Part shown: piece by piece, positions 637-17,495 of the stretch
Layout of the letters: every line of letters begins with the position of its first letter
Position numbering within the stretch: position 1 is the stretch's first letter
Origin: an uncultured Nitrospiraceae bacterium
GTDB taxonomy: Bacteria > Nitrospirota > Thermodesulfovibrionia > Thermodesulfovibrionales > UBA6898
Direction: 5' to 3'
Assembly: GCA_963811165.1 (NCBI GenBank)
Contig: CAWEQH010000010.1
Coordinates: forward strand, 896,001-960,000
DNA length: 64,000 bases
Position numbers and translations under genes: made by a program
The notes under the pieces: model-generated
What the model was told of the DNA's origin: nothing
The model's input: the letters and a program-made list of their open reading frames with translations, nothing else
Database searches by the model: none

Positions 637-1446
637 CTATAAGGTCGAGCACTTCTTGTGGCAGGTGCAGCAAAGATTACTCGATGTGTTTGAAACCCAG
701 AGGAAGTAATCGCCGTCGTTCTTTGTGTTGTGAACGTCGTGGCAGGAACCGCACTCAACATTGCCGCCGTAAAGCGCGTCGTTGATCGTCATGCCGTGAG
801 TGGACCCGATGAATGCAGTACCCGTCGGCTGGATCTCGTCATCGCCTCCAACTATCACTGCCTGATAACCGATTCCAACTGGATGATGGTTGCTCAAGTC
901 GCCCCCCGCGCCGATCAAGATTCTACCGGTGGCTTTAAGATCACTTGCATTACCCCTAAGGTTGGAGTCGACAGACCCGTAAGCGCCGATCGCGATCGTG
1001 CCGTCATGGCAGCTCAGGCATAGCTTCGAAACTCCGCCCGGCTGTCCAATGACTTGGCCGTTTACTCCGGAATTCAGCTGATGCGCAATGCTGTCGGGGA
1101 TGTAGGGTTGACCGGGGTCGGTATTCTGATAGCCGGTAAAATTCGCCGTTGTTACCGCATGGTTCCAAAGAGGGTAGTAAGTCAGGCCTGCTGCTGCCGC
1201 GTCAGCCGGCTTTATCGTATGGTGCGGAGCGTGGCAGAATATGCAGATTTCATTGTATTGGTTGGGAGTGGCAGGCACCCAAAGGCCTTTTGTTCCCGGA
1301 CCTGTTGAACTGAGGTCGTGGGAAGTACCTTTAATGCCTGATCCAGGACCATTTGGGCCCATCGTCGCAGAGACGAGGGTAAATCCTAATAGAAGTATCC
1401 CCATCGCTATGAAAAGCGCTAAAACATGTTTTCTCATTTTCTTCAT
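637..1446 (-). CDS. OmcE-like secreted tetraheme cytochrome c (nanowire-type)
   Basis: Signal peptide; 4 CxxCH (CIFCH, CLSCH, CGSCH, CCTCH); motif series IKGTSHDLS..ICIFCHAPH..PLWN..SKLCLSCHDG..DLSNHHPV..ECGSCHDVH..FL..S.LC resembles Geobacter OmcE. Confidence 0.85.
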   Translation of the reverse strand: MKKMRKHVLALFIAMGILLLGFTLVSATMGPNGPGSGIKGTSHDLSSTGPGTKGLWVPATPNQYNEICIFCHAPHHTIKPADAAAAGLTYYPLWNHAVTTANFTGYQNTDPGQPYIPDSIAHQLNSGVNGQVIGQPGGVSKLCLSCHDGTIAIGAYGSVDSNLRGNASDLKATGRILIGAGGDLSNHHPVGIGYQAVIVGGDDEIQPTGTAFIGSTHGMTINDALYGGNVECGSCHDVHNTKNDGDYFLWVSNTSSNLCCTCHKKCSTL

Positions 1447-1575: not shown

Positions 1576-1603
1576 AAAGGCAGGCGGTTGCCCGCCTGCC
1601 TTT
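1576..1603 (-). terminator. Intrinsic terminator after the giant cytochrome
   Basis: AAAGGCAGGCGG-TTGC-CCGCCTGCCTTT hairpin just past the stop at 1617. Confidence 0.8.
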
Positions 1604-1616
1604 CTGAGAAGCAGAA

Positions 1617-4600
1617 TTACGGGAACGATACAGGTGTGTTCACACTTGATACCGCAACAGACTTAGTCGAATTCAGGACACCGTATTTGTACGCCTGAAC
1701 TGAATAAGTGCCGGCCGACAGGGTTGTCGCCGTCGTGTAAGCGCCACCTGCATTCGTGGTCCCCTGCGCAACAATCGTCCCGGACGAATTCTTCACGGTA
1801 ATTGTCGCGCCGCTGACAACCGGACTCGTGGTTACAGCGATGCTGTACTTCGTTGTAGCCGTTACCGAAGCCGCAAAGGCGGCTACAGTTGCACTCGGGC
1901 CTACCGATACGCTGCCTGATGCCGGTGTAAGGGTCACACCCGTCTTGAACGGAACAACGGTATAGGTACCGGGCTTCACATTCGTGAAGGTATAAGTCCC
2001 TGCACCAGAAACTGGAGTGTAGGTATTTGCGACAACGGTCGTCCCGCTCTTCAGACTGACAAGCATATTATTGACATTCGGGGAAGCCCCGGTCACTGTG
2101 CCTGTGATCGTGAAGGCAGTGAGCGCACCGCTCGATGCAGTAGCGCTGTTGCTTAGCCCACCCGCATCGGTTGCTCTCAACGTGATGGGGTAAGTGCCTG
2201 CCGCCGTATAGGTGTGCGAGAAAGCTGCCCCCGCATTGCCCGTCGAGGAATAACCGTCACCCCAGGTTACCCTGACAGCATTCGTCGGGAAGGCGGCGTC
2301 GTCTGTGGAAGCATCGGTAAACGACACTGTCCAGGTATTGGCATCCGTGGTCACGGTGCCGATTACAGCAACTGGAGGCTGGTTCACAGATACCGGCGCA
2401 ACCATATGGGACACGCTGGCCGAAAGGCCGGAATCTGCGTTAAGGGTAAGGGTTACGGTTCTCGGCGTGGCATCGCTATAAGTGCGAGAAGTAGTTATGC
2501 CCGTACCCGTCGTCGAATCACCGAAATCCCAACTATATGTGCAAGCTGCGCCGCTTGGACATGTAGACGTACCGGCATTGAAGTTGACTTTGTAGGCTAT
2601 CGTGGAATCGTCTGTCCAAGTGAAATTCGCTGCAGCAGCAACACCTGCAGTAGCAGGGTCCATTAGATGCGCCAGCTGGGTTGATGTGAAACCGAGCAGA
2701 TCGTTTGCGCTGATGTATGTCTTAACGTTGACACACTTGTCGGCAGATGTACCATCCTGTCCAACGCAATACCCTGTTCCTGTCATCCCGCACGGAACAT
2801 CAGGCCCCATAAACCCATAATTTGTAAGACATCTTGCTGCCTGGTCCCATCCTGCCGCATGAGCTGGGTTGTCAGGATTCTTCTCTGCAAAGATAGGCCA
2901 TGTTAAATCCAGCGGACCATTGCTCTGCAGCACGACCTTATTGTGTGTACGCGATTGTGCCCTTGTGTACATAAGGGAACCCAAACTGCCGAACGGATCT
3001 CGGCCAAACTGGAACAATGCCTCGCTGTCAGGAAGGCTACCCTGGCAATCGGCATTTACCGCGCAAGCCTGACCTGCCCTGAAACCGCCATTGTTACCTG
3101 CGCCAGTGGAAGCGCACGTATGGGGCCAAGGTGACCCCGGCAGTGGTGCACCTGTACACTGACCGGCAAACATCTGGCCAACCGGCATGTCAAAACCAAT
3201 CATACCGGCCGTCGGCGCAACAAATGTAGGACTCGGCATACAGTTGTTGACGTTCACAGGGAAACCTAAAGCATCAGCCTGACTCTTCATGCCGGCCATA
3301 GGATTACAGCCGTGTGAGGTGCCATCCTGCGTCTCCCTCAGGAAAAGGCCCTGAAGCCCTGCTATCCCGTCGTTAAAGCCCATCATGCCGGCGGTGCTGG
3401 CAGCATGGGTTGCATCGATGCCTGTATGCGGCATGCCCATCATCGCGTCAAAGCCCGCGTTCATTAATGCGGTGCATTGACCGATGGTGGTGATTCCCAT
3501 GCCAGACAACAGACTATTTGGTGAACATGCTGCATTAGGATCATTCAGATTGCCTGTCATCTGATTGAAATAATAACTGTCCGGTGTCAACGGGAACATG
3601 GAATCTAACATCCCTGCGGGGTTCGTCATCCCATGAAGCATCGACCCAAGCATATCCAGACCTGCTACGCCGTAAACGTTCTGTGTCGAACAACCTGAGC
3701 CGCCGCATGTGTTGGCTCCGCAGAACTCTTTGGCGCAGTCGAAGTCTGCGAACAGCGCCACAGGGTTCTTAATGAGATCGAATTTTCCGACAAAGAAAGC
3801 GCCGATCATCGGGACCATGTTGTCGATCTGATTGACATCACCGGCTGCGAATTGAGGAGTGGCCCTCTCCGTGTACGGCTGAAGGCCCTCGAAGAAGCCG
3901 ACAGAATACGGCGAATAGTTGGGATTTGGACCATTGGGCATTCCATGGGCGTCAAACGTGTAAGGCTGCGCGCTCGAGTGGCAGTTTAAGCAGCCGCCTC
4001 TTTCAGTCGCGCCCAGAGCCCACTCTTTCGGAGCTACGCCGTGGGTCTCATCAAAGGAGGCATGGAATATCTTTTCGAGCTTCAGTTGTTTACTGGAGTC
4101 GCTAGAGAACATCGTGGCACTCTTGGCCCTCATAGCGTTCCTCTTTGCTATGGTGTCCATTGCGAGATTGTCCGTAAGGACCCAGTTGTCAAACACAGGC
4201 GCCATAGAGCCGCCGTTGATACGGACGCCTTGCAATGATCCGTCCGCTATCGCTGCCGCCGCTACGTCGATAATGTCCCTCGCCATCGAAGGAGTTACAT
4301 TGGCCGCATTGCCAGGCCGGCAAGCGCCCGGGATGCCCGTTGCGCCCATGTTCATGTCCGGGTAGGTCGCATAGCCGGGACAGTCGGCGTCAGAGTTACA
4401 TGTCCACAAGACCTTGACGCCACTCTGACATGTCTTGATAGCGTTTGGTTCATTGTCGAGGTTAAAAATGGTTGTGTTATCGTTGTTGGCCGGGTCCTCA
4501 TTGGCTGCATCCACCCCGGTGTCATTGCCAGGAGAGTTCAGAACCAGCGGGTCACTCGTTGTGAGTCTCGACGTGGCCGAAGTGCCGAAGGTGCCGGGGG

Positions 4601-6704
4601 TCCAATTGTTGATCACGCTTATCCAGTTAGGAACTTCAATAGGCGTGACCGGGTAGATCTTCGTTTCGCCATACTTGTGGGCCCATTGATGGAGCTGCTT
4701 GGTAGAATCGCCGGAAGCGGTGACAAAGTCGTAACTGAAGTCGTATACGTTTCTGTTGCCGCCGGCCGCCTCTGTGCCTCGTTTAAATTTGCCCGCCGTG
4801 AAATCTCTGTACTTCAGTTTGAAAGGTTGAATATAGATTTCCGGTATATGGCAGGTCGTACATCCGATCTTGGCAAGATGTAACGCAGGGAAGCTGCTGT
4901 GTGTCGGGGTCGGAGGGAAAGGACTCACCGACTTAGGCGTGCCATCTGCATTAAAATATCTCGGATGGGTATTGTCGACGTGGCAGCTTTCGCACGAGAC
5001 AGTGCCGTCAATGTGGTTAGTGCCATAGGCGTCCTTGAGCGAGTCGCCCTGCGCGAAATTGTGGTCGATGCCCTGAATCACCTCCTGGGGATAGGCCACG
5101 CCGTGATCGGTCGCTGCGGGAATGGTCACCGCGCCGCCCTCAAGGATAGACGAGCCTAATCCATAATGGCAGGTTGCGCACTGCATGCCTGCCGCGTCAT
5201 GGACATCCTGATCAGGCATTTTCGCTTTGGTCACCAGGGGACCAAGTTGCGTTGTGTAAGTGTGATCTGTAATAGGCGTACCCGGCATAATGCCGAGACC
5301 GAACATTGCACTGAACATGCTCATACCCCATTTATCATTCGGGCCTGCGCCGGTCTTATCGCCTCTTTTGCCCATACCGGTCTTGCAGCCCAGTTCCATC
5401 CACCGCACAGGGTTCGAATTGTCGGCGGATAGGCTTCCCGGGTCGACGTCTAAAACAGTGCTTTTAGGGTTGATGATGAGGTAGATACCATACCCGTATC
5501 TCACCGGATTCAGCATGCCCGGGAGACCCGGTGTGTTGTCGTCACGTCCGTGACACACCGTACAGTTCTGGCTGTTCGGCGTGCCCTGGATCATGCCGGC
5601 CGAGATTGTTGACGGAACGCCGCTTATGCCGGTAATGTGCAGATGTCCGTCGGGAGCCATGGAAAGACTTGCTTTGGCTCCTATACCCAGCGAAGCGGCC
5701 AGGTTGAACTGTTGGTCCTGTATCGCCAGTGTTCTGTTGAACGAGTCGTATTTTGTGCCTGGCAGATACATGCCGGCGCCGTTTCTGCCCATCATATTGG
5801 GATCGGTCAGCGCAGGATCGGTACCATTAGGAGCCAACTGATATGCGCAGTAAGGATCGTTGATTGGTCCGAGCTGTACACCTGAACCTAACACGCTACG
5901 GCCTGCGCAGTCGATGGAATTAAGGAACGCACGACCGTTGCCCGATATGTTCGAACTATCATGCAGGTGGCAGAGGAGACAATCGACTTCTGCCTTGTTG
6001 GTACCGCTCATGTGGGTTGCGGTGATCCCGCCAATGGGATCATCGAGCGTCGGAGGTTTGAAATAATAGAAGTCGCCGCTTCCCTCCCCGGCCGAGCCAT
6101 AATCATTCCTGTCCCTGTCATATTCCAGCTGACCGCCACCGGCGTGACAGTGACCGCAGCTGAATGCCCAGTCCTGCATGCCGGTTTCCATCGATTTTGC
6201 TAATTGTGCTGGTGTATCAGAAGGTGAGCCCTTTGCCGCCAACTGGCGGTTTGAGGGTGGTCAATACTTGCCGTACATGCCCGCGGTGCTGGTGAAGAAC
6301 AGATCACCGAATTGGGCCCTGTACGCGTTGGTATAGGTTTCGTTACGTCCCTGATTCATGTGTTTTCCAACGGAAACACCATGCGCAAAGGACTTGGTCT
6401 GCGACGCTTCCCAGGTAACAGAAGAATCACTGCTTGCAAGCACACCCTGAACGTGCGTCGAATATTTATCTCCCGAGCCGTAGTCGTGGCCTGCAAAATC
6501 GATGATGTCACCTGATGAAATGTGGCATGCGCGGGCGCAGGTCGCCTTCGGGCTGTACGGCGTTGCGCTAGTCACCGGACTGCCGTTGGCCTGCAACAGC
6601 GGTACATCTCCGCCGGAATGGGCGGCCATTGCCACCGCGGAACCGGCGAAGAACAATATAGCAGAGAAAACTGCTATATATACTTGTAAACTAATTTTTT
6701 TCAT
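1617..6704 (-). CDS. Giant secreted octaheme cytochrome c (OTR/MmcA-like core plus PKD/Ig domains), predicted selenoprotein with Sec at UGA 6263-6261
   Basis: ORFs 6261..6740 and 1617..6242 are in the same frame, separated only by TGA plus 6 sense codons (..GMYGKY*PPSNRQLAAK..); ATG 6704 has a GAGGAG RBS and a signal peptide; 7 CxxCH plus 1 CxxxCH; C-terminal PKD-like repeats. Confidence 0.8.
6229..6260 (-). promoter_or_regulatory. Putative bacterial SECIS element
   Basis: mRNA UGA-CCA-CCCU-CAAA-CCGCC-AGUU-GGCGG-CAA-AGGG: two-part hairpin whose apical loop starts 16 nt after UGA, with G at loop position 2. Confidence 0.7.
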
Positions 6705-6937
6705 AAACTTCTCCTCTGTTTTAGATTCTTGTCGATGCAAGTAAAGGATGAAGGGGGGACTTTTGCGAGATTGTGAGTGGGGCTGTCAGGCGCATCCTCT
6801 AACAGAGAATCGCCGCCAGCATCTGCGGTAACATCGGTCACGGCATGGTAAGAGGCTGCCGTGGTTTCCCGAAGGCCCGCCACAAACACAAATGAGGACA
6901 AGACCATATTACCGAACTCTAATCTTAGGTTCTCCAC
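6701..6937 (-). CDS. Small hypothetical protein / upstream ORF coupled to the cytochrome start
   Basis: AGGAGG RBS before GTG; its TGA overlaps the cytochrome ATG (ATGA). Confidence 0.35.
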   Translation of the reverse strand: MENLRLEFGNMVLSSFVFVAGLRETTAASYHAVTDVTADAGGDSLLEDAPDSPTHNLAKVPPSSFTCIDKNLKQRRSL

Positions 6938-7730: not shown

Positions 7731-8303
7731 TCATTCTTTCCACCGAAGTTCGTATGCAATCTCCCATGTGCCTGCCGATACCATGGACTTGCTTTTTGCC
7801 TGCATCGTCAAATCCCTGCCGCCGGCCATTTCAACGGCTTTTTTTGAGTATCCGAGACATGCGGGGGGCAGCCAGTCCAGAAATATTTCCGGCAGGGTGA
7901 ACTTCACTACCGCATGCCCTTTTTCGCTCAACGGCACTTCTACCTTCCCGGAATTAAAAAACTTGTCCCAAAGTATGGGGTAGTTCTTTATCACGAAGGA
8001 AGGGTTCGCAAAAGTAAAGAAGATCTTATATATTTTGTTCAGGCTTTGGTCGGCGATATACTCGTAAATGCAGGCGATCTCGGAGTCCTTAGCAGACTCT
8101 AGCTCCCTGGTGAGTACCGATATCATCTCCTTAAACGCGGTAAAAGGATATTCATGGTTAACGAGAATCCCGGCTTCCCAGCTTTCCTGAGATTCCTTTG
8201 ACAGCGATTCCATGATCCGTGCCCATACATCCCCTCCGTATTTAGCTTCTATGAAGCGTTTAGAATAGAGAAAGTTGACTCCTTTGGCTAACACCTGTTT
8301 CAT
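7731..8303 (-). CDS. DUF2378/TIGR02265-like (H-NOX/V4R-fold) protein, paralog 1
   Basis: KG..F..FI..KYG..W..I N-terminus, YP(F) and LW..FF..G motifs; RBS GGAGG; 4 paralogs in the window. Confidence 0.65.
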   Translation of the reverse strand: MKQVLAKGVNFLYSKRFIEAKYGGDVWARIMESLSKESQESWEAGILVNHEYPFTAFKEMISVLTRELESAKDSEIACIYEYIADQSLNKIYKIFFTFANPSFVIKNYPILWDKFFNSGKVEVPLSEKGHAVVKFTLPEIFLDWLPPACLGYSKKAVEMAGGRDLTMQAKSKSMVSAGTWEIAYELRWKE

Positions 8304-8624: not shown

Positions 8625-9194
8625 TCATTCTTTCCACCAGAGTTCGTACGCAATCTCCCATGTGTCTTCCGATATCATGGACTTGCTTTTTGCCTGCATC
8701 GTCAAATCCCTGCCGCCGGCCATTTCAACGGCTTTTTTTGAGTATCCGAAGCATGCGGGGGGCAGCCAGTCCAGAAATATTTCCGGTAGTGTGAACTTCA
8801 CTACCGCATGCCCTTTTTCGCTCAACGGCACTTCCACTTTCCCGGAATTGAAAAACTTGTCCCAAAGCCTGGGGTAGTTCTTTATCACGAAGGAAGGGTT
8901 CGCAAAGGTAAAGAAGATTTTATATATTTTGTTCAGGCTTTGGTCGGCAATATACTCGTAAATGCTGGCTAGCTCGGAGTCCTTAGCCAACTTTAGTTCC
9001 CTGGTGAGTGCCGATATCATCTCCTTAAACGCGGCAAAAGGATATTCCTTGTAAACGAGAAGCCCGGCTTCCCAGATTTCCTGAGATTCCTTTGACAGCG
9101 ATTTCATGATCTGTGCCCATACAGCCTCTCCGTATTTAGATTCTATGAAGCGTTTAGAATAGAGAAAGTTGACTCCTTTTGCTGCCACCTCCAT
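8625..9194 (-). CDS. DUF2378/H-NOX-like protein, paralog 2
   Basis: Highly similar tandem duplicate of 7731..8303. Confidence 0.65.
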   Translation of the reverse strand: MEVAAKGVNFLYSKRFIESKYGEAVWAQIMKSLSKESQEIWEAGLLVYKEYPFAAFKEMISALTRELKLAKDSELASIYEYIADQSLNKIYKIFFTFANPSFVIKNYPRLWDKFFNSGKVEVPLSEKGHAVVKFTLPEIFLDWLPPACFGYSKKAVEMAGGRDLTMQAKSKSMISEDTWEIAYELWWKE

Positions 9195-9437: not shown

Positions 9438-10220
9438 TCAGTTGTTAGTCGCCCTTTCGGACACAATTTCTATTTTTGCGTCTTTCCTCAGTTCATTATT
9501 CCATTCTTCGCGCCTCTTTCTACTTTTCTCCGATTTGATTTTCCTCTCGAGAAATTCTCTTGTCTTTTCAAAAGACAACTGTCGCGGAGGATTGTCTTTC
9601 GTCATCAATGTAGCCTTCTCTTTTTCGTATGCGGCCCTGAGTGCCTCGTCATCTACTTTTATTTTTTCATATATCTCGATAGCGGTTATGCTTTCAAAGA
9701 GTCGGCTTCTTTCGATAATCTTCCTCAGATCATCTTCATTCACGTTGATCTGTTCAAGATATTTTTTATACGCCTCATCTGAACCAGCCTGCGCCTTCAT
9801 TTTACTTATCACATCCTCGACAGCTTCCGGTTTGATCCTTATGCCTTCGTTTATTGCCTTTTGAACAGCCAATTCTTTAAATATCAAGTTGTTCAATGCC
9901 TCTTTCTTTATTTTCGTTGTCAATTCCGGAGTGGTCGGCTGTCCATGCGCGACAAACTTCGGAGCGATCGCATTCATCTCTCTCACAAGAAAATACGTGG
10001 TTATCTCCGCTCCATTCACTCTGGCGACCACGATATTTTTTGATTCTTCGACCCCCTTTTTGATCTCATCCATCCGTTTTGCTTGCTCCGGAGTTATCTT
10101 TGGCCCCTCCTTCTTTATCGCATTCGTCGAGACACCCTCCCTTTTGGCGCAGGAAAAGCATGTGAAAAGCACCGCGAGGGCCATCGACATCCCTGCCACT
10201 GTCATGATTATCCTCTTCAT
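9438..10220 (-). CDS. SurA N-terminal domain lipoprotein (periplasmic chaperone)
   Basis: Lipobox FSC; VARVNGAEIT..ALNNLI..EL..Q.A...GI; C-terminal LRKDAKIEI. Confidence 0.75.
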   Translation of the reverse strand: MKRIIMTVAGMSMALAVLFTCFSCAKREGVSTNAIKKEGPKITPEQAKRMDEIKKGVEESKNIVVARVNGAEITTYFLVREMNAIAPKFVAHGQPTTPELTTKIKKEALNNLIFKELAVQKAINEGIRIKPEAVEDVISKMKAQAGSDEAYKKYLEQINVNEDDLRKIIERSRLFESITAIEIYEKIKVDDEALRAAYEKEKATLMTKDNPPRQLSFEKTREFLERKIKSEKSRKRREEWNNELRKDAKIEIVSERATNN

Positions 10221-10228
10221 TTCATCTC

Positions 10229-11365
10229 CTATTCCTGTTTCCCGGCATCTTTTTCCATATTCTTATTATCGAGCAAAATCTCGATTTTTGCATTTTGTCT
10301 TAGTTCTCTTTCCCACTCTTCCCGTCTCTGGTCCTGGGCAGGAACAAGGAATTTAGGCTCTATTGCGCCCCTTGCTTCTTCAAACGTGGCTTGGTGCGAG
10401 GGCTCCTTTTTGACGACCTTTATGATATGAAAACCGTCCTTGTCTTTCATGATACCGCTCAGGTCGCCTACCTTCATGTCGGTCATGGCCTTATAGATCT
10501 CCGGATATTTTTCTTTTTTGATATTTATCTTTCTCACGATGAACGAACCATCCAGCACGAGTTTCCAGACATCGTTATCGTTCTTCATGATCGTTTTCAG
10601 TATCTGTTCGGCTTTTCCCCGTGTTGCCTCCTCATCCTTCCCCTGCAGAAAGAAAACGTCTTCGACAACAAAATTATCAGGCAGGATAAATTTTCCCTTC
10701 TCCTTTTCATACTCGTCATGAAGAAGCTTCTCGTCCACCTTGACCTTCCTGTAAACCTCTCTTGCGGTGATCAGTTCGTAACGCTGGCTTCTCTCTATAA
10801 TCTTCTTAAGGGCATCTTCGGTAAGACCGGCTTTATCAAGATAATCACGGTAGCCCTGCTCCGATCGCATGTTTTGCTTGACCTGGGCCACTACCTTCCC
10901 GATCGCCTCAGGCGCAGGATTTATGCCCTGCTTAACGGCCTCCTGCACAGCCAGTTCCTCAAATATCAGCCTGTCCAGTGCCTCCCTCTTTATCTTTGCG
11001 GTCGTTTCCGGCGTCACTGCCTCACCCTCTTTGACATATTTCGGTGCAACTCTGTTCATGGCGCGCGTAAGCATTAACATGTTAATGTCCGCGCCGTTCA
11101 CTCTGGCTACAATATTTTTTTTTGCTTCCTCCGCAGCTTTTCTTTCTCCTTCAACCTTCTTTGTCTCCTCTGCCTTTTGGGCTTCCGCTGCTCTTACCGA
11201 CTCTTCGTCCTTCTTTTCATCCTTGGGAGATTCTTTGATAACATCATGCCGCTCTGCTGCAGCAGCGCCATTGTCGATGCTGTTCCCACCGGCGTGTAAA
11301 CGGCCGGTTAAGCCAGGCACAACCATGATAATTGCAACCGCCAGAATAATAAGTGTTTTTCTCAT
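10229..11365 (-). CDS. SurA_N plus PpiC-type peptidyl-prolyl isomerase
   Basis: Signal peptide; VARVNGADI; rotamase-like MKVGDLSGIMKDKDGFHIIKV. Confidence 0.8.
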   Translation of the reverse strand: MRKTLIILAVAIIMVVPGLTGRLHAGGNSIDNGAAAAERHDVIKESPKDEKKDEESVRAAEAQKAEETKKVEGERKAAEEAKKNIVARVNGADINMLMLTRAMNRVAPKYVKEGEAVTPETTAKIKREALDRLIFEELAVQEAVKQGINPAPEAIGKVVAQVKQNMRSEQGYRDYLDKAGLTEDALKKIIERSQRYELITAREVYRKVKVDEKLLHDEYEKEKGKFILPDNFVVEDVFFLQGKDEEATRGKAEQILKTIMKNDNDVWKLVLDGSFIVRKINIKKEKYPEIYKAMTDMKVGDLSGIMKDKDGFHIIKVVKKEPSHQATFEEARGAIEPKFLVPAQDQRREEWERELRQNAKIEILLDNKNMEKDAGKQE

Positions 11366-11492: not shown

Positions 11493-12065
11493 TTATTCTA
11501 CCCAATTCAGCTCATAGATGATCTCCCATGTGTTGTCGGACAATAAAGACTTGCTTACCTGATGAATCGTGAGGTCTTTGCCTCCGCCCATTTCTACGGC
11601 CTTCTTTGAATAACCGCGACATGCCGGTGAAAGCCAGTCCAAAAAAATCTCGGGAAGTGTGAACTTCACTATCGCGTGGCCTTTCTCGGTCACAGGAACT
11701 TCAACCTTTCCCGCATCGAAGAAACGGCTCCATAGCTTCGGATAATTTTTTATGACAAACGAAGGATTCGTCAGCTGAAAGAAAATCTTGTAAAGAACGT
11801 TCAGACTGTTTTCTGATATATATTCATAGAGGCGGGCGGTCTCAACCTCTTTCTGCATTCCCAATACCTTTGAAAGTGAAGTCACCACAGACTTGAAAGC
11901 CCCGAACGGATAGCTTGAAGTAAAAAGAGGCGTATCCCTCCAGATTGTGGCGACATCGGATGGAACAGAAGCAAGAAGCTGTTCCCATGCAGCTGCTCCA
12001 TATTCTTGAAGGATAAACTTTTTTGCAAAAACGAAATTCGGACCTTTTGCCATCACTTCCGCCAT
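11493..12065 (-). CDS. DUF2378/H-NOX-like protein, paralog 3
   Basis: Same family motifs; RBS AAGGAG. Confidence 0.65.
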   Translation of the reverse strand: MAEVMAKGPNFVFAKKFILQEYGAAAWEQLLASVPSDVATIWRDTPLFTSSYPFGAFKSVVTSLSKVLGMQKEVETARLYEYISENSLNVLYKIFFQLTNPSFVIKNYPKLWSRFFDAGKVEVPVTEKGHAIVKFTLPEIFLDWLSPACRGYSKKAVEMGGGKDLTIHQVSKSLLSDNTWEIIYELNWVE

Positions 12066-12275: not shown

Positions 12276-12965
12276 CTAATTAATAAACTCCACATAGGAC
12301 GGGGGAGGGTCTGCCAATCCGACCTGGATATAGCGCCTGTCCATAGCCTGAGAGTTGTTCCGGCCTATGAGTTCTCCTTGCATGGCGATCGCGCGGTTGC
12401 CGGGGAGACGGAGGCGGACACATATTCTGCTTCCATCCTGCAAGTGTCTGTAATAATTATTGTCGGGAAGTATGAGCATCCCCCTCTCTGAAAGACCGAT
12501 CGACATGCCAGGACATCTGCACTCATTAAGACATCTGCAGTCATCAAAGGTGAGTGTCACTTCCATATGACGGCCCTCGGCATACCGGGCCTTAACGAGG
12601 TCAGGGTTAAGCATGCAGTTAAGCAGTTCGTTAAGCTCGTCTGTGGAAAACGGTTTCTCCAGGAGGTCGAAGGCGCCGAGGCGGAACGCCTTGCACCTGC
12701 TGTTTTCGGTAGAAGAGGCGGTCATCATCAATACTTCAGTAGAAGGCGAAGTCGACCTTATCATGGGGAGAACTTCCCACCCACTTATGTCAGGCAGGTT
12801 TATATCAAGGAGCACCGCATCAAAACGATCTTGGGACAGCTTCCCCATCGCCTCTTTGCCTGAAGCAACCGCCACGACGTAATACCGCCGCTTTGTAAGG
12901 AGTATTCTCAGCATATTAAGCAAGAGCTCATTGTCTTCAACGATCAAAATTTTGTTGGCGGCCAT
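12276..12965 (-). CDS. Response regulator (REC plus degenerate PilZ-like domain), copy 1
   Basis: ILIVED..LLDINLPD..MMTA..LEKPF; C-terminal R...R / GLSERGM beta-barrel pattern. Confidence 0.8.
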   Translation of the reverse strand: MAANKILIVEDNELLLNMLRILLTKRRYYVVAVASGKEAMGKLSQDRFDAVLLDINLPDISGWEVLPMIRSTSPSTEVLMMTASSTENSRCKAFRLGAFDLLEKPFSTDELNELLNCMLNPDLVKARYAEGRHMEVTLTFDDCRCLNECRCPGMSIGLSERGMLILPDNNYYRHLQDGSRICVRLRLPGNRAIAMQGELIGRNNSQAMDRRYIQVGLADPPPSYVEFIN

Positions 12966-13028
12966 CTTTTTATCTTCCTGCCTCCTTAACTATGTAATTT
13001 TATTGTCTTCGGAGGACAAACGAGAAAT

Positions 13029-13044
13029 AGCAAATAGCGTGCTA
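13029..13044 (-). promoter_or_regulatory. sigma54-like element upstream of REC-PilZ copy 1
   Basis: TAGCACGCTATTTGCT. Confidence 0.45.
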
Positions 13045-13304
13045 AGTTTAGAATTTGTGCAATTATACGGTTGGGATATTACCGGACTTGAGCCCGCGTA
13101 TAAACTCAGATTTTGTCGTACCCCGGCTTGACCGAGCAATCGGGGACCCTTGAAATCACTGGGATTCCCGCCTTTCGCAGGAATGGACAAAAGAGGAAGT
13201 ACTCCACGTGACACACATATCCAAATTATGTGATTCGCTATCATTATGACCTTTTGAAAAAATGATTTGTAAGGTCTGCTTAATTCGTTACTTCCTGATC
13301 ATCC

Positions 13305-13348
13305 GGGGTCATTTCACCCTAAAAAGGGTTATTTTAGTCACGGGGTTG
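13305..13348. promoter_or_regulatory. Putative UAS, copy 3
   Basis: GGGTCATTTCACCC-TAAAAA-GGGTTATTTTAGTCAC. Confidence 0.6.
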
Positions 13349-13611
13349 AGAGGCGGATAAATCCCGTCAGAGATTCAGACGAAAAGCTCAGGCTGCCAAG
13401 CCCAAAGGACAGCCTTGTGGTATGCTGCCTCATTAGAGGTTCAAAGGAAACGGCAATGCTGTCAGTGTACGGTTTGGAAAAAGCGATAGAAGAACTGCAT
13501 GAAAAAGCCGGTAGTGTCCAGGACACTACCAAAAAGCAGCCCGGATCGCTCATGGGTCGAAAAGTAGGGTGATGAAGGAATCCATCCGGGACTACTGCTC
13601 GTAAATTGTGA

Positions 13612-15933
13612 TCAGAATGTTCGTTTCGGTGAGCGACCCTTTCCCTGCCCTAAATCCCGCCGTCCGGGGTCATCACTCTGCAGGTTCTCCCAGACTATTG
13701 TCAGCAACTCCTCCACATCAAGCGGTTTCGATATGAACTGAAGATTTTCATCAAGAATACCGGTTGCCGTGATGATGTCATCGGTATAACCGCTTATAAA
13801 AAGGGTTTTTATATCGGGTCTGTCGCTTTTTATAAACTCATGGACTTCGCTGCCGTTCTTCCCTGGCAATATGACATCTAAAATAAGCATATCGATAGAA
13901 TCTCTGTTTTCCTGGTATTTCCTGATCGCCTCTTCTCCATCCTCCGCCAGTATAACGGTATAACCTCTTTTAGTAAGCAGCTTCTGGAGAAATTGTCCCA
14001 CCAATACATCATCCTCTGCCACCAATAAAGTACCTTGCCCCGGAGTTATCGTCTTACGTTCCGAAGTCGTTGAGGGCATTTCAGAATCATGCACCTGGGA
14101 TACAGGAAAGAAAATCTTGAAGGTGGTGCCTTTATCCACTTCGCTTTCCACATCTATGTAACCGTTGTGCTGATGGACTATGCTATGGACGATAGTAAGT
14201 CCCAGTCCCGTACCCTTGCCGCTTCGCTTAGTGGAATAAAAAGGCTCAAAGATGTGGTCCATGGTCTTAACGTCCATTCCTGTTCCTGTATCACGCACAG
14301 AAAGCACCATATATGTTCCCGGCGTTACCGTGGAGTATTTGCCCGTATATGTCTCCTGCAGTTCGATAAGGCCCGTCTTGATATGGAGCTCACCGCCGAG
14401 GGGCATTGCGTCCTTTGCATTGGTGCAGAGGTTTATAATCATTTGCCCAATTTGATAGGGGTCCGCAAAGATGGGAATTCCGTCCTCGGCAAGAGAAATC
14501 TTCAATGCAATTTCTTCGGTAATAAGCGTCTTCAACATATCCGATATGGTGTTTATTATCTGACACACTTCCACATTTACCGGATTCATAATCTGTTTAC
14601 GTCCGAAAGTGAGAAGGTTGGACGTGAGGTTTTTCCCGAACTTGACAGCGAGAGATATCTGTTCGATACATTCCGCCGAATCCTTATCTTTGTCCCCGAG
14701 GTCATCGCTGAGAAGATGGGTGAACCCCCCTATTGCAGTAAGAACATTGTTGAAGTCATGGGCGATCCCGCCCGCGACTTGGCCAAGGGATTCCATCTTC
14801 CGGGATTGCAAAAGTTTATCTTCCAGCTTCTTTTTTTCCGTTATGTCCCTGTTACTTGCCCTTCTTCCGAGAAATTCTCCATTTACATAAATAGGTCCGC
14901 AAACATGGGACAACCACCTCACTTGTCCGTCCTTGGCAATGATGCGGAATTCCTTGTCCGGATGCAAAGGCTCCCGAAAATCGATGATGTCATTCTTATA
15001 GGCATCCCTGTCGTCAGGATGGATGATACTGTTAAGAAGATCGGGTTTTTCCATGAATTCACGCGGGCTGTATCCTGTTATTCGTTCGGAGGACGGAGAC
15101 ATGAAAACAAACTCGCCATCTTCCTTGATCCAGAAGTCGAAGTCATTGGCGAACTCCGACACAATGCGAAACTTCCTCTCGTTTTCCTCGATCGCCCGCT
15201 GATACCGCCGAAGCCCGCCGGAGAACAGCACAATCGTTCCGGTTCCGATCAGCCACAGTAAAAAATGGGTTATGAGAGTAATCCTGGTTGTCTTAGTCGC
15301 AGCTGAATAATAGGGCTGCATCGGCACGGCTATACTCATGGCGCCACGGATGTCTCCCACCCTATAGCCCTGTTGGCCGTGACATTTCACACAACCCTCA
15401 TATGTCATATAGGGCCAGATGACGCGCATATACGGAAGACCGTTTATCTCGGTAATTTGACTAAACTCTGTCTGACCCTTTTCAAATGCACTCAGGGCTT
15501 TTGTTTCCCATGCGTCAGGCGTATTTGCAGGGTTGAGAGGCTTCAAGCTGATCGTCCGGTTTATGGAGGCCAGCGGTGACTGGTTGCGGAGCAACTCGTA
15601 GGCTTGCTTTGTCATCTGAAAAGGGTTTATAAGCGTGAGCTTTGTACCGTCTGTCGTAACGACGTCTCTTTTAGGGGAAACGATATAAGGGTTCGGCCGG
15701 TCCTCATTCGTGACTTCTACATAGACGCCTCCGTGTGCGGTATTCCATCGTCTGTAAGCCAGGTTATGCTGAAAAATTGTCTGTGCCTCAATGCGCGCTC
15801 TCTCGAGCGTTTCTTCATGATTTTGATAAAAATTCAAAATCACCGAAGCGGCAACGAGAAGTGTCCAAAGAACCAGAAAAACGGCAAGATAGTTTTTCGT
15901 CCATATCCTCTCAATCAAGGCTCGGAGCTTCAC
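13612..15933 (-). CDS. Hybrid sensor histidine kinase with heme-c (DUF3365/Tll0287-like) sensor, PAS, HisKA, HATPase and REC domains
   Basis: TM-periplasmic domain with CVKCH-TM; PAS IHPDD; GGIAHDFNN H-box; GTGLGL; C-terminal REC. Confidence 0.9.
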   Translation of the reverse strand: MKLRALIERIWTKNYLAVFLVLWTLLVAASVILNFYQNHEETLERARIEAQTIFQHNLAYRRWNTAHGGVYVEVTNEDRPNPYIVSPKRDVVTTDGTKLTLINPFQMTKQAYELLRNQSPLASINRTISLKPLNPANTPDAWETKALSAFEKGQTEFSQITEINGLPYMRVIWPYMTYEGCVKCHGQQGYRVGDIRGAMSIAVPMQPYYSAATKTTRITLITHFLLWLIGTGTIVLFSGGLRRYQRAIEENERKFRIVSEFANDFDFWIKEDGEFVFMSPSSERITGYSPREFMEKPDLLNSIIHPDDRDAYKNDIIDFREPLHPDKEFRIIAKDGQVRWLSHVCGPIYVNGEFLGRRASNRDITEKKKLEDKLLQSRKMESLGQVAGGIAHDFNNVLTAIGGFTHLLSDDLGDKDKDSAECIEQISLAVKFGKNLTSNLLTFGRKQIMNPVNVEVCQIINTISDMLKTLITEEIALKISLAEDGIPIFADPYQIGQMIINLCTNAKDAMPLGGELHIKTGLIELQETYTGKYSTVTPGTYMVLSVRDTGTGMDVKTMDHIFEPFYSTKRSGKGTGLGLTIVHSIVHQHNGYIDVESEVDKGTTFKIFFPVSQVHDSEMPSTTSERKTITPGQGTLLVAEDDVLVGQFLQKLLTKRGYTVILAEDGEEAIRKYQENRDSIDMLILDVILPGKNGSEVHEFIKSDRPDIKTLFISGYTDDIITATGILDENLQFISKPLDVEELLTIVWENLQSDDPGRRDLGQGKGRSPKRTF

Positions 15934-16088
15934 AGAAAATGTCCCTCCCGGATGGGTAAGACTATGGAATGCCAGAAATTCATGCTATGTAAGCTCTGTG
16001 ATAAAAATAATGCGCAGCCGAAGCGGACCAAGCCCGTCTTCTTCGATAAGGTCTAATGCCGGCATATCGAAGAAATCATATCGCGGTC

Positions 16089-17495
16089 TCATTCGTGCGT
16101 GTCCTTTTTCTCTCGAAGATGCGTCAGCCCCATCTTTTTGAGGCGGTACCGGAGAGTGTCCCTGCTGATGTCAAGTAGCCCCGCCGTCTTCCTCTGGTTG
16201 CCGTTGGTCAACGCAAAGGCCTCCTTAATTATGGCTTCTTCCATATCCTTGAGGGACGTGCTGTTCCGGTCCTTGTTCCCGCTTATTTCCACCGGTATCG
16301 CTTCACTCTTTCCGGGGAAAAGACCCTGTTGGACATCGCGGTCCGTGATCTCGTCTCCCTTTGACAAAATGACCATCCTCTCGATCAAATTCTTCAGTTC
16401 CCTCACATTGCCGGGCCATTCGTATTCCTGTAAACTCGTCATGGCCTTCGCGGACAAGCCCTTCGGCTTTAACCCGTATTTTTCACCACTCTCATCCAGA
16501 TAGTATTGAAGGAGCAAAGGTATATCGATTTTCCGCTCCCTTAGCGGAGGCATCTCGATCGTTGCGATATTGAGGCGGAAAAAGAGGTCAAGTCTGAATT
16601 TCTTGGCGTGTACAAGGTCCTGAAGATCCCTGTTTGTCGCGGCCAGTATCCTCACGTCGGCATGTATGTAATCAAGCCCTCCGATTCTCCGGAACCTTTT
16701 TTCTTCGATCAGAGTGAGGATTTTTGACTGCATCCCGTAAGGCATGTCGCCGATTTCATCAAGCAGCACCGTGCCGCCCTGAGCCATCTCAAAGAGCCCC
16801 TTCTTTGTTTCTTTCGCATCAGTGAATGCACCCTTTTTATAGCCGAAGAGCTCGCTTTCTATGAGATGGTCCGGTATGTTCGAGCAGCCAATCTCCACAA
16901 ACGGCATATTCCTACGGGAACTCATCTCGTGGATCCTCCTGCAGAGGAGATTCTTCCCCGTACCGCTCTCCCCGAGCACAAGGATCGTTACGTCGGACTT
17001 TGCCGCCAAACTGTCTGCGATCCTGATGACCTCTCTCATCGTGTCGCTCGCAAAGACACCATCGCCTATCCTGTTGTTCTTATCTATTGGTTGTTTTTCT
17101 TTCTTTAGGGTTCGTAGAACGTTAGTGATGCTGGCAAAATCGAGAGGTTTTTCAAGGAAATCATAGGCCCCCATCTTCATGGCCTCGACGGAGCTTTTTA
17201 TGTCGGCATACCCCGTGATCACGATAACCACGGTTTCGGGATTTACCTCTTTAATGGTTTTAAGGAGATCAATCCCGCTCGAATCGGGTAACCTGACATC
17301 CAGTACAACGATTCCCGGGGTCTCTTCTTCCAAGATTTTTAATGCGGAGGCGCCGGAACTTGCCGTCAAGACGGTAAATCCCTCTTTCTCGAAGAGCTTT
17401 TTCAGCGAAAGTCTAATCAGCGCTTCATCATCAACGATCAAACTTTTTTTCTGGATTATGGCGGAACTGGGTTTAGGGAATTTCTTCAGTTTCAC
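16089..17495 (-). CDS. sigma54-dependent response regulator (NtrC/AtoC family), copy 1
   Basis: REC; GESGTGK; ESELFG..GAFTDA; WPGNVREL; Fis-type HTH. Confidence 0.92.
   Translation of the reverse strand: MKLKKFPKPSSAIIQKKSLIVDDEALIRLSLKKLFEKEGFTVLTASSGASALKILEEETPGIVVLDVRLPDSSGIDLLKTIKEVNPETVVIVITGYADIKSSVEAMKMGAYDFLEKPLDFASITNVLRTLKKEKQPIDKNNRIGDGVFASDTMREVIRIADSLAAKSDVTILVLGESGTGKNLLCRRIHEMSSRRNMPFVEIGCSNIPDHLIESELFGYKKGAFTDAKETKKGLFEMAQGGTVLLDEIGDMPYGMQSKILTLIEEKRFRRIGGLDYIHADVRILAATNRDLQDLVHAKKFRLDLFFRLNIATIEMPPLRERKIDIPLLLQYYLDESGEKYGLKPKGLSAKAMTSLQEYEWPGNVRELKNLIERMVILSKGDEITDRDVQQGLFPGKSEAIPVEISGNKDRNSTSLKDMEEAIIKEAFALTNGNQRKTAGLLDISRDTLRYRLKKMGLTHLREKKDTHE

Follow-up and report, generated by a model that had tools for sequence, protein, structure and literature searches.

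Gene organization and reading frame

The window analyzed here is a 64,000-nt stretch of DNA from an uncultured Nitrospiraceae bacterium of the order Thermodesulfovibrionales (contig CAWEQH010000010.1, positions 896,001 to 960,000; coordinates below are those of the window). On its minus strand, at 1617..6704, lies a coding sequence of 1695 codons plus stop that runs through one in-frame UGA at codon 148. We refer to its product as P0001. Two minus-strand open reading frames (ORFs), 6261..6740 and 1617..6242, were found to share one frame, with the TGA at 6263..6261 as the sole interruption between them. Translation from the ATG at 6704 with the TGA read as U gives the 1,695-residue P0001 with U at position 148, and homologs align on both sides of the UGA. 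The rest of the ~5-kb gene contains zero further stops or frameshifts. By eye, a Shine-Dalgarno-like GAGGAGAAG (6708..6716) lies 3 nt 5' of the ATG at 6704, and the N-terminus MKKISLQVYIAVFSAILFFAGSAVAMAA resembles a signal peptide. The predicted signal peptide, of the Sec type (elsewhere in this text Sec stands for selenocysteine), covers residues ~1-27 (...AVAMAA; 6624..6704), and similar hydrophobic N-termini are found in relatives. The "TTG start" of the downstream 1541-aa ORF is the Leu codon of N-R-Q-L-A, which sits within the hairpin described below; inspection by eye found no Shine-Dalgarno sequence ahead of this TTG nor ahead of the next ATGs. The public gene call for the downstream part (P0002) is 1520 aa long.

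The translated sequence has the marks of a c-type cytochrome: seven CxxCH motifs and one CX3CH motif, plus, by eye, the signal-like N-terminus. Heme motif 1 (CARACH, residues 56-61; 6522..6539) is the CX3CH motif and is replaced by CxxCH in most relatives; C56, C60 and H61 are kept in 42 of 43 alignment rows. Heme motifs 2-8 (CxxCH at residues 183, 242, 381, 509, 571, 615 and 905; 3978..6158) complete an octaheme core that is like that of octaheme tetrathionate reductase (OTR) and has large insertions. A Cys-rich region with 16 non-heme Cys follows (residues ~940-1340; 2685..3887), and in relatives conserved Cys and other columns are found beyond residue 1000. The C-terminal part is made of two PKD domains (residues 1356-1523; 2136..2639; PF18911 E 1e-19, PF00801; ColH PKD E 8.5e-9) and Ig-like beta-sandwich repeats (SdrD_B/CarboxypepD_reg-like; 1620..2087). 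Pfam recognises solely this tail of PKD domains and Ig-like repeats. Relatives keep the architecture, with a signal-like N-terminus, heme motif 1, Sec at residues 132-188 and seven further motifs. Two loci from Nitrospirota metagenome-assembled genomes (MAGs), L061 and L062, have 10 and 13 CxxCH, respectively, instead of 8. The Sec loop between heme motifs 1 and 2, SSPGM(F/Y/W)G(K/R)(Y/F)-U-PPSNRQLA, is among the most conserved stretches of the family; H108, H115, R120, R129, M143 and R153 are also highly conserved.

The original prediction, made from the letters of the window, had joined the two ORFs through UGA-148, had quoted the peptide GMYGKY-U-PPSNRQLAAK around it, and had described the downstream 1541-aa ORF as carrying seven CxxCH and having neither signal peptide nor ribosome binding site (RBS). 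The single shared frame, the peptide (an exact match) and the motif count bear this out, the missing signal peptide and RBS being judged by eye. It had also placed the signal peptide and the first heme motif in the upstream part. Both are there (the signal peptide again by eye); the motif is CX3CH (CARACH), not CxxCH.

Conservation of the UGA codon and cysteine homologs

Across 301 genomes of the order, a six-frame search with the first 350 residues recovered homologs in 13 genomes. The search gave 18 non-self matches, 15 of them with TGA at the column of codon 148 (14 reported with exactly one TGA, and L021). Three divergent paralogs in the same search carry Cys at the column and one carries Asp (L031, among the Ser/Asp forms below). 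Further loci were collected by a pattern scan (one genome per species) and then tblastn. A search with a single protein as query found no loci; with the alignment as query the collection grew by 37 loci, which belong to Desulfobulbales, to Thermodesulfovibrionales/Nitrospirota and to a small number of MAGs with loose names. The family is widespread in sulfur-cycling Desulfobulbales and Thermodesulfovibrionales. After de-duplication there are 39 distinct TGA genes in two phyla (the window gene included) and five genes with TGC or TGT in the same motif. Among 99 database homologs, 11 span the column and 11 of 11 have Cys, in the context ...GM(F/W)G(K/R)(Y/F)-C-(P/M)PSNRQ...; the other 88 start downstream. 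Trp was never seen at the column in the homologs examined, and Ser or Asp occurs only in distant paralogs. Four such distant relatives (P0181, P0188, P0199 and L031) keep the loop as GMFGKF-S-IIPNRQL or GVYGGY-D-PATGRRL.

An exhaustive HMMER search of 1.84 billion cluster representatives detected 168 relatives at E <= 0.001. Among the 150 representatives listed, 31 are stumps of 86-177 aa whose match ends at their own last residue, corresponding to query residue 147, and at least 20 of the stumps terminate literally in ...SSPGM(F/Y/W)G(K/R)(Y/F). Many of the long matches among the same 150 begin at query residues 160-194. The stumps and the downstream-starting matches together indicate that gene callers split this family everywhere. 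In public protein sets it is cut into a stump of ~150 aa and a leaderless "hypothetical protein" of ~1,300-1,500 aa, and metabolic reconstructions and cytochrome censuses therefore miss or misread it. One homolog, P0024 of a Thiovibrio isolate, carries an annotation as truncated at the N-terminus. The signature Y/F-UGA-CCN-CCN-UCN-AAC-CGC-CAG-UUG-GCG-G may serve as a rule for fixing the annotations.

The TGA itself was checked in sequence data. Contigs from seven runs cover codon 148 (6261-6263). Those of four runs, all of a single study and perhaps of the source sample, show 0 differences there; related-strain contigs from three runs of three further studies (X5, X7 and X8) differ elsewhere and are identical at codon 148. 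A further run (X6) has no contig over the codon and is uninformative. A look for RNA libraries covering the locus listed none; in one library labelled metatranscriptomic, and flagged "probably DNA", a contig reaches no more than 13 nt beyond the UGA. An assembly slip is not the source of the TGA.

A quick maximum-likelihood tree, built from the 44 rows that reach 600 aa or more, has Cys forms nested within Sec clades at three or more places, a pattern in keeping with repeated replacement of Sec by Cys, as also reported for the MccSep family (PMC13510729). One Nitrospirae MAG contig (L068, the same DNA as L020 and L030) carries two paralogs ~4 kb apart, each with its own TGA and an identical hairpin; one falls in the main clade and the other in the "...NRQLADLT" paralog clade.

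A conserved SECIS-like hairpin downstream of the UGA

A minimal hairpin resembling a selenocysteine insertion sequence (SECIS), CCGCC-AGUU-GGCGG (14 nt; 6236..6249, minus strand), starts 11 nt past the UGA and encodes part of N-R-Q-L-A. The hairpin is kept in 39 of 39 TGA genes. At codons +1 to +3 (Pro, Pro, Ser) the 39 genes show four codons per place, with one ACT besides at +3. Codons +4 to +8 are close to invariant: AAC (39/39), CGC (37, with two CGT), CAG (39/39), UUG (38, with one GUG) and GCG (38, with one ACG). Past +8 codon variation returns. All 195 of 195 hairpin pair cells are standard, including one compensatory change from C-G to U-A (at the cost of an Ala-to-Thr change) and one G-U. 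Cys forms with the identical peptide NRQLAAK use CUG, GCC, AAU, AGA or CUU, and four of five have lost the hairpin. The fifth Cys form (L044) has a Sec gene of its own MAG as its close sister. We consider the synonymous-site invariance, with the Cys forms as a natural control, to be the stronger argument for a predicted RNA element, and the RNA case is built on it.

The constraints given for the bacterial SECIS (bSECIS) in the available part of PMC13188914 are a loop of 3-9 nt with G in one of the first two places, a stem of 4-16 bp, a distance of 16-37 nt from the UGA and a minimum free energy (MFE) of -7.5 kcal/mol or lower. The hairpin falls within all of them, with the loop AGUU (4 nt, G second), a 5-bp stem, 16 nt from UGA to loop and an MFE of -8.3 kcal/mol. 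An extended stem (CCCU...AGGG; 6229..6257, minus strand) surrounds it in this gene only and is not kept in relatives; the UGA plus 42 nt folds here with -15.1 kcal/mol. The fold z-score of the 86-nt stretch around the UGA is unremarkable (-0.98), and single-sequence folding energy is not the evidence for the hairpin. An Rfam scan of 5900-6900 at E <= 10 returned zero families.

The simplest alternative is that the UGA is a genuine stop and that the locus holds two genes, one for a 147-aa secreted monoheme protein and one for a 1520-aa protein, or else a pseudogene. Automatic gene calls do split the locus in this way (P0002, and the 31 stump representatives among the 150 listed). Against this, the downstream part has neither a signal peptide nor a Shine-Dalgarno sequence, yet contains seven heme motifs that need export. 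A single TGA stands at the same column in 39 genes of two phyla with invariant flanks, the Cys forms are uninterrupted, RNA-level constraint starts right past the UGA, and no further stop or frameshift has accumulated in 5 kb. A genuine stop is therefore very improbable.

Selenocysteine machinery and predicted decoding of UGA-148

The genome encodes the means to insert selenocysteine. ARAGORN found a tRNA-Sec, and selA, selB (adjoining each other) and selD were each detected above the curated cut-off. The selD gene (contig C8:482523-483443 of the same genome) carries one in-frame TGA itself and is the selenoprotein form of SelD. TGA terminates 12 of the 23 window ORFs of 300 aa or longer, so the code has not been reassigned.

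These results also bear on a read-through of the UGA in which selenium takes no part, by a near-cognate Trp- or Cys-tRNA or by a reassigned code. Such read-through would likewise yield the full-length protein, and nothing specific speaks in its favour. It is at odds with the use of TGA as the end of 12 of 23 long ORFs and with the keeping of the whole Sec machinery, selD with its own TGA included. The column alternates with Cys, not Trp, and the conserved hairpin has the position and the loop of a SelB-binding element. We regard this explanation as more improbable still than a genuine stop.

We conclude that UGA-148 (6261..6263, minus strand), where 39 distinct related genes have TGA and others a Cys codon, is very likely decoded as Sec. 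The minus-strand gene 6704..1617 as a whole is predicted, with good though somewhat lower confidence, to encode one Sec-containing, secreted, eight-heme c-type cytochrome. The original prediction had held that a UGA followed by a SECIS encodes selenocysteine here and that standard annotation would split the gene, and had pointed to the homologs, the reads and the Sec machinery as the places to look. The first claim gains, as a prediction from sequence, from the SECIS-type hairpin, the machinery and the Cys homologs. The second agrees with P0002, which starts past the UGA, and with the 31 of 150 listed representatives that stop at residue 147. Homologs carry TGA in 39 genes, Cys in others and never Trp; contigs of seven runs keep the TGA; and selA, selB, selD and tRNA-Sec are all present.

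The heme domain is a remote relative of OTR

P0001 gave a sub-threshold NCBIfam match to TIGR04315, the family of the OTR of Shewanella oneidensis (PDB 1SP3), with 19.8 bits (E 3e-4) vs a cut-off of 375. A PDB sequence search matched the PKD domains only. An AlphaFold2 model of residues 1-1000 (86 rows) reached a mean predicted local distance difference test score (pLDDT) of 74 and a predicted template modeling score (pTM) of 0.80; a model of residues 1-250 from 24 full-length rows had a mean pLDDT of 50. With the larger model, Foldseek returned a single PDB match, 1SP3 (E 7e-3, probability 0.77). VIA-align, which is independent of Foldseek, also placed 1SP3 on top, with Z 7.4 (in the range where the tool warns of a common arrangement), a root-mean-square deviation of 4.4 Å over 321 of 436 residues and 20% identity. 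The alignment spans 27-939 of the model and 2-423 of the 1SP3 chain, and the next match has Z 3.1. Profile comparison by hhalign with ten true TIGR04315 members gave 96.6% probability (E 4.9e-10) over heme motifs 5-7, and N-terminal profiles aligned at heme motif 3 (93.5%). From the VIA-align, Foldseek and hhalign matches we conclude that the heme domain is a remote, ~three-fold enlarged OTR relative with the same eight-motif order.

The likeness to OTR lies in the shared order of the eight motifs, of which the last stands far downstream, and in the profile-to-profile alignment of motifs 3 and 5-7. In both proteins the segment from heme motif 1 to heme motif 2 also holds a conserved loop with Cys or, as predicted for P0001, Sec. 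P0001 differs in a heme domain ~3x longer by insertions, and in its additional Cys-rich region and PKD/Ig tail. Since it scores below the curated TIGR04315 cut-off, it is placed outside the OTR family and is OTR-like at the superfamily level. Between heme motifs 1 and 2 the OTR family carries an invariant K56 and NNFC64. Lys56 reportedly ligates the active heme 2 of OTR, a finding attributed to Mowat and colleagues in 2004. K146 of P0001 was considered as the equivalent of this Lys and dropped, the position being K or R in the family.

In the order, 52 of 301 genomes have OTR-family matches, 36 of which exceed the curated cut-off, and none of the matches listed has an internal stop. The window's own genome has a true TIGR04315 homolog outside the window (C10:1068325-1069610), found as two overlapping pieces in different frames, the one at profile positions 2-173 and the other at 156-440, which suggests that the gene is frameshifted, a pseudogene or misassembled. 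Sec has been annotated in heme-motif proteins before: the available part of a table of prokaryotic selenoprotein families lists three entries related to heme, namely ExtKL (NF040886), a TIGR04315 member annotated in GenBank, and the "GSU2204 family CXXCH-containing protein" (NF041027) (PMC13188914). P0001 shares heme motifs and an annotated or predicted Sec with the last two, and it matches neither model at the family level.

Comparison with the multiheme selenoenzyme MccSep

To our knowledge, only one multiheme selenoenzyme has been characterised, MccSep, in 2026. MccSep/ExtKL (GSU2937-2936) of Geobacter sulfurreducens is a multiheme selenoenzyme polysulfide reductase (PMC13510729, Sci Adv Aug 2026). 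The protein is ~430 aa long and has five hemes followed by an Ig-like domain with U325 in PDG-U-PTPNR; its heme 2 is His/Cys-ligated, the assembly is tetrameric, and the catalytic Sec beside a heme is able to cleave S-S bonds (PMC13510729).

P0001 resembles MccSep in many respects. Both are periplasmic or secreted multiheme c-type cytochromes whose annotations are split at an in-frame UGA, in both Sec alternates with Cys and Cys forms are nested among Sec forms, and both have a SECIS hairpin within 30 nt of the UGA (predicted in the case of P0001), a spread over Desulfobacterota and Nitrospirota, and the short local motif U-P-x-x-N-R. The layouts differ. In MccSep all five hemes precede the Sec, which lies in an Ig-like domain at the C-terminus (PDG-U-P[ST]PNR), whereas P0001 has one heme motif before and seven after Sec-148 and is 1695 aa long. 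The MccSep hairpin, as far as the available part of the source gives it, is unlike that of the P0001 family in sequence. We took six MccSep homologs from the genomes of relatives for comparison. BLASTP of these against P0001 gave a best E of 0.28, hhalign of MccSep and the P0001 family gave 18.7% over two heme motifs only, and P0001 had no NF040886 match at E <= 0.01. Membership of P0001 in the MccSep family was therefore rejected, on the lack of detectable homology and the different heme/Sec layout. The MccSep motif was found in 46 of the 301 sampled genomes of the order and co-occurs with the P0001 family in at least six genomes; it was found neither in the window's own genome nor in 53 sampled genomes of its family.

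ExtKL had been offered in the original prediction as a precedent. As an analogy this holds, both being multiheme cytochromes with Sec (predicted for P0001) that are split at a UGA; it does not extend to descent, as homology is not detectable and the nearest known relative of P0001 is the OTR fold. The kind of gene is thus already known, namely a Sec-containing multiheme cytochrome concealed by a UGA. The OTR-like octaheme cytochromes to which P0001 belongs form a family that is widely distributed, systematically mis-split and undescribed. A literature search limited to a library with a minority of the subscription papers found no paper describing it as a selenoprotein. If the prediction is correct, a second multiheme cytochrome lineage with no detectable homology to MccSep has also recruited selenocysteine. 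It would offer a natural Sec/Cys series, a very compact SECIS and a candidate enzyme for extracellular sulfur/selenium redox chemistry.

Possible function of P0001

We tentatively propose that P0001 may be a third independent heme selenoenzyme, a giant secreted OTR-derived octaheme enzyme with Sec at the catalytic heme that would attack extracellular or insoluble chalcogens with a tetraheme partner and SurA-like chaperones. The hairpin, as one of the smallest conserved bacterial SECIS, is part of this joint proposal, which we consider possible with the balance somewhat against it. The narrower claim of a catalytic Sec acting on a chalcogen substrate, made by analogy, has about an even chance of being right.

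In the proposed mechanism SelB-GTP-Sec-tRNA(Sec) would bind the hairpin on the translating ribosome and insert Sec, and the insertion would thereby join the signal peptide and heme 1 to hemes 2-8. P0001 would be exported and matured as a single chain. Sec is put at the catalytic heme because it is located between heme motifs 1 and 2, the segment that holds K56/NNFC64 in OTR. There it would probably attack a chalcogen substrate as the nucleophile, with polysulfide/S0, tetrathionate or thiosulfate, or selenite as candidates; Sec has been shown to play this role in the unrelated MccSep. Electrons would probably arrive via the conserved neighbouring tetraheme cytochrome, the conserved SurA-like peptidyl-prolyl isomerases (PPIases) would probably help to fold P0001, and the PKD/Ig-like tail would probably anchor it to the cell surface or to a solid substrate. 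Nitrite or hydroxylamine would be alternative substrates by analogy, given the promiscuity of OTR (as cited in the available part of PMC13510729). Should the proposal be true, P0001 would represent an enzyme so far missing from the cryptic sulfur (or selenium) cycle, hidden by database splitting and used by Desulfobulbales and Nitrospirota that disproportionate or respire sulfur.

P0001 could also contain Sec and be an electron-transfer conduit or surface "wire". Sec would then ligate a heme axially, bind a metal or form one half of a selenylsulfide, by which potential or stability is tuned. A large secreted multiheme protein with a PKD/Ig-like tail and a small multiheme cytochrome as neighbour is what extracellular electron-transfer systems look like. 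There are seven conserved non-motif His for eight hemes, which leaves room for a Sec/Cys ligand, and His/Cys ligation is known in MccSep and TsdA (PMC13510729). The size of the protein speaks against a conduit: P0001 has ~22 kDa per heme, a class described in the available part of PMC7096707 as "peptide replete" and catalytic, far above electron-carrier cytochromes. The nearest fold, OTR, is that of an enzyme; Sec is characteristically found in the active sites of selenoproteins (PMC13188914, available part); and repeated Sec-to-Cys replacement fits a redox-active residue. We consider a conduit unlikely.

Several observations weigh against the catalytic selenoprotein proposal or narrow its basis. 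The gene is patchy, the seven other genomes sampled from the genus having yielded no homolog, and the locus sample is biased because two peptide patterns were used to find the loci. The tree comes from a quick search and is midpoint-rooted, the careful search being unfinished. In size the hairpin lies towards the lower limit of the bSECIS model, and its spacing is the minimum. Its covariation is thin because only one of the five pairs ever varies, and a score as high is reached by 27 of 500 shuffles. Over the Sec loop (residues 110-156) both models stay at pLDDT <50, which leaves no basis for a claim on Sec-heme geometry; at the sequence level the loop is unaligned with the K56...NNFC64 loop of OTR, and the structural match to OTR comes with the VIA-align warning given above. 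The favoured substrates (polysulfide/S0, tetrathionate, thiosulfate and selenite) are a guess by analogy. In the related organism D. dismutans an extracellular octaheme locus was reported to be induced under nitrate ammonification (DNRA) (PMC12142623); that locus could not be tied to the P0001 family.

Neighbouring genes

A gene for a tetraheme c-type cytochrome (269 aa; 637..1446, minus strand) with its own RBS lies downstream of the P0001 gene, and a homolog is adjacent in at least 10 related loci. It is likely the redox partner of P0001. Two SurA-like chaperone/PPIase genes (9438-10220 and 10229-11365, minus strand) have homologs adjacent in at least 21 related loci. These neighbour counts rest on flanks of 1.5-2.5 kb.

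Past the stop codon of the P0001 gene, by eye, a GC-rich hairpin GGCAGGCGG-GCAA-CCGCCTGCC is followed by TTT (~1579-1600, minus strand). It was missed by the terminator scan because the T tract is short; counts from the promoter and terminator scan were near the shuffled expectation.

Three paralogous 190-aa proteins are encoded upstream of the cytochrome gene (7731-8303, 8625-9194 and 11493-12065, minus strand), with the SurA-like genes lying in between. All three lack a signal peptide, and the one family match is a weak one of a single protein to H-NOX (HNOB; E 3e-4). They are possible sensors of heme or gas connected with the cluster. The stretch 12276-17495 (minus strand), just upstream of the cluster, holds genes for a response regulator, a hybrid histidine kinase and a sigma-54 activator, which are possible regulators of the cluster. 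The hybrid histidine kinase has a Tll0287-like (heme-binding PAS-like) sensor domain.

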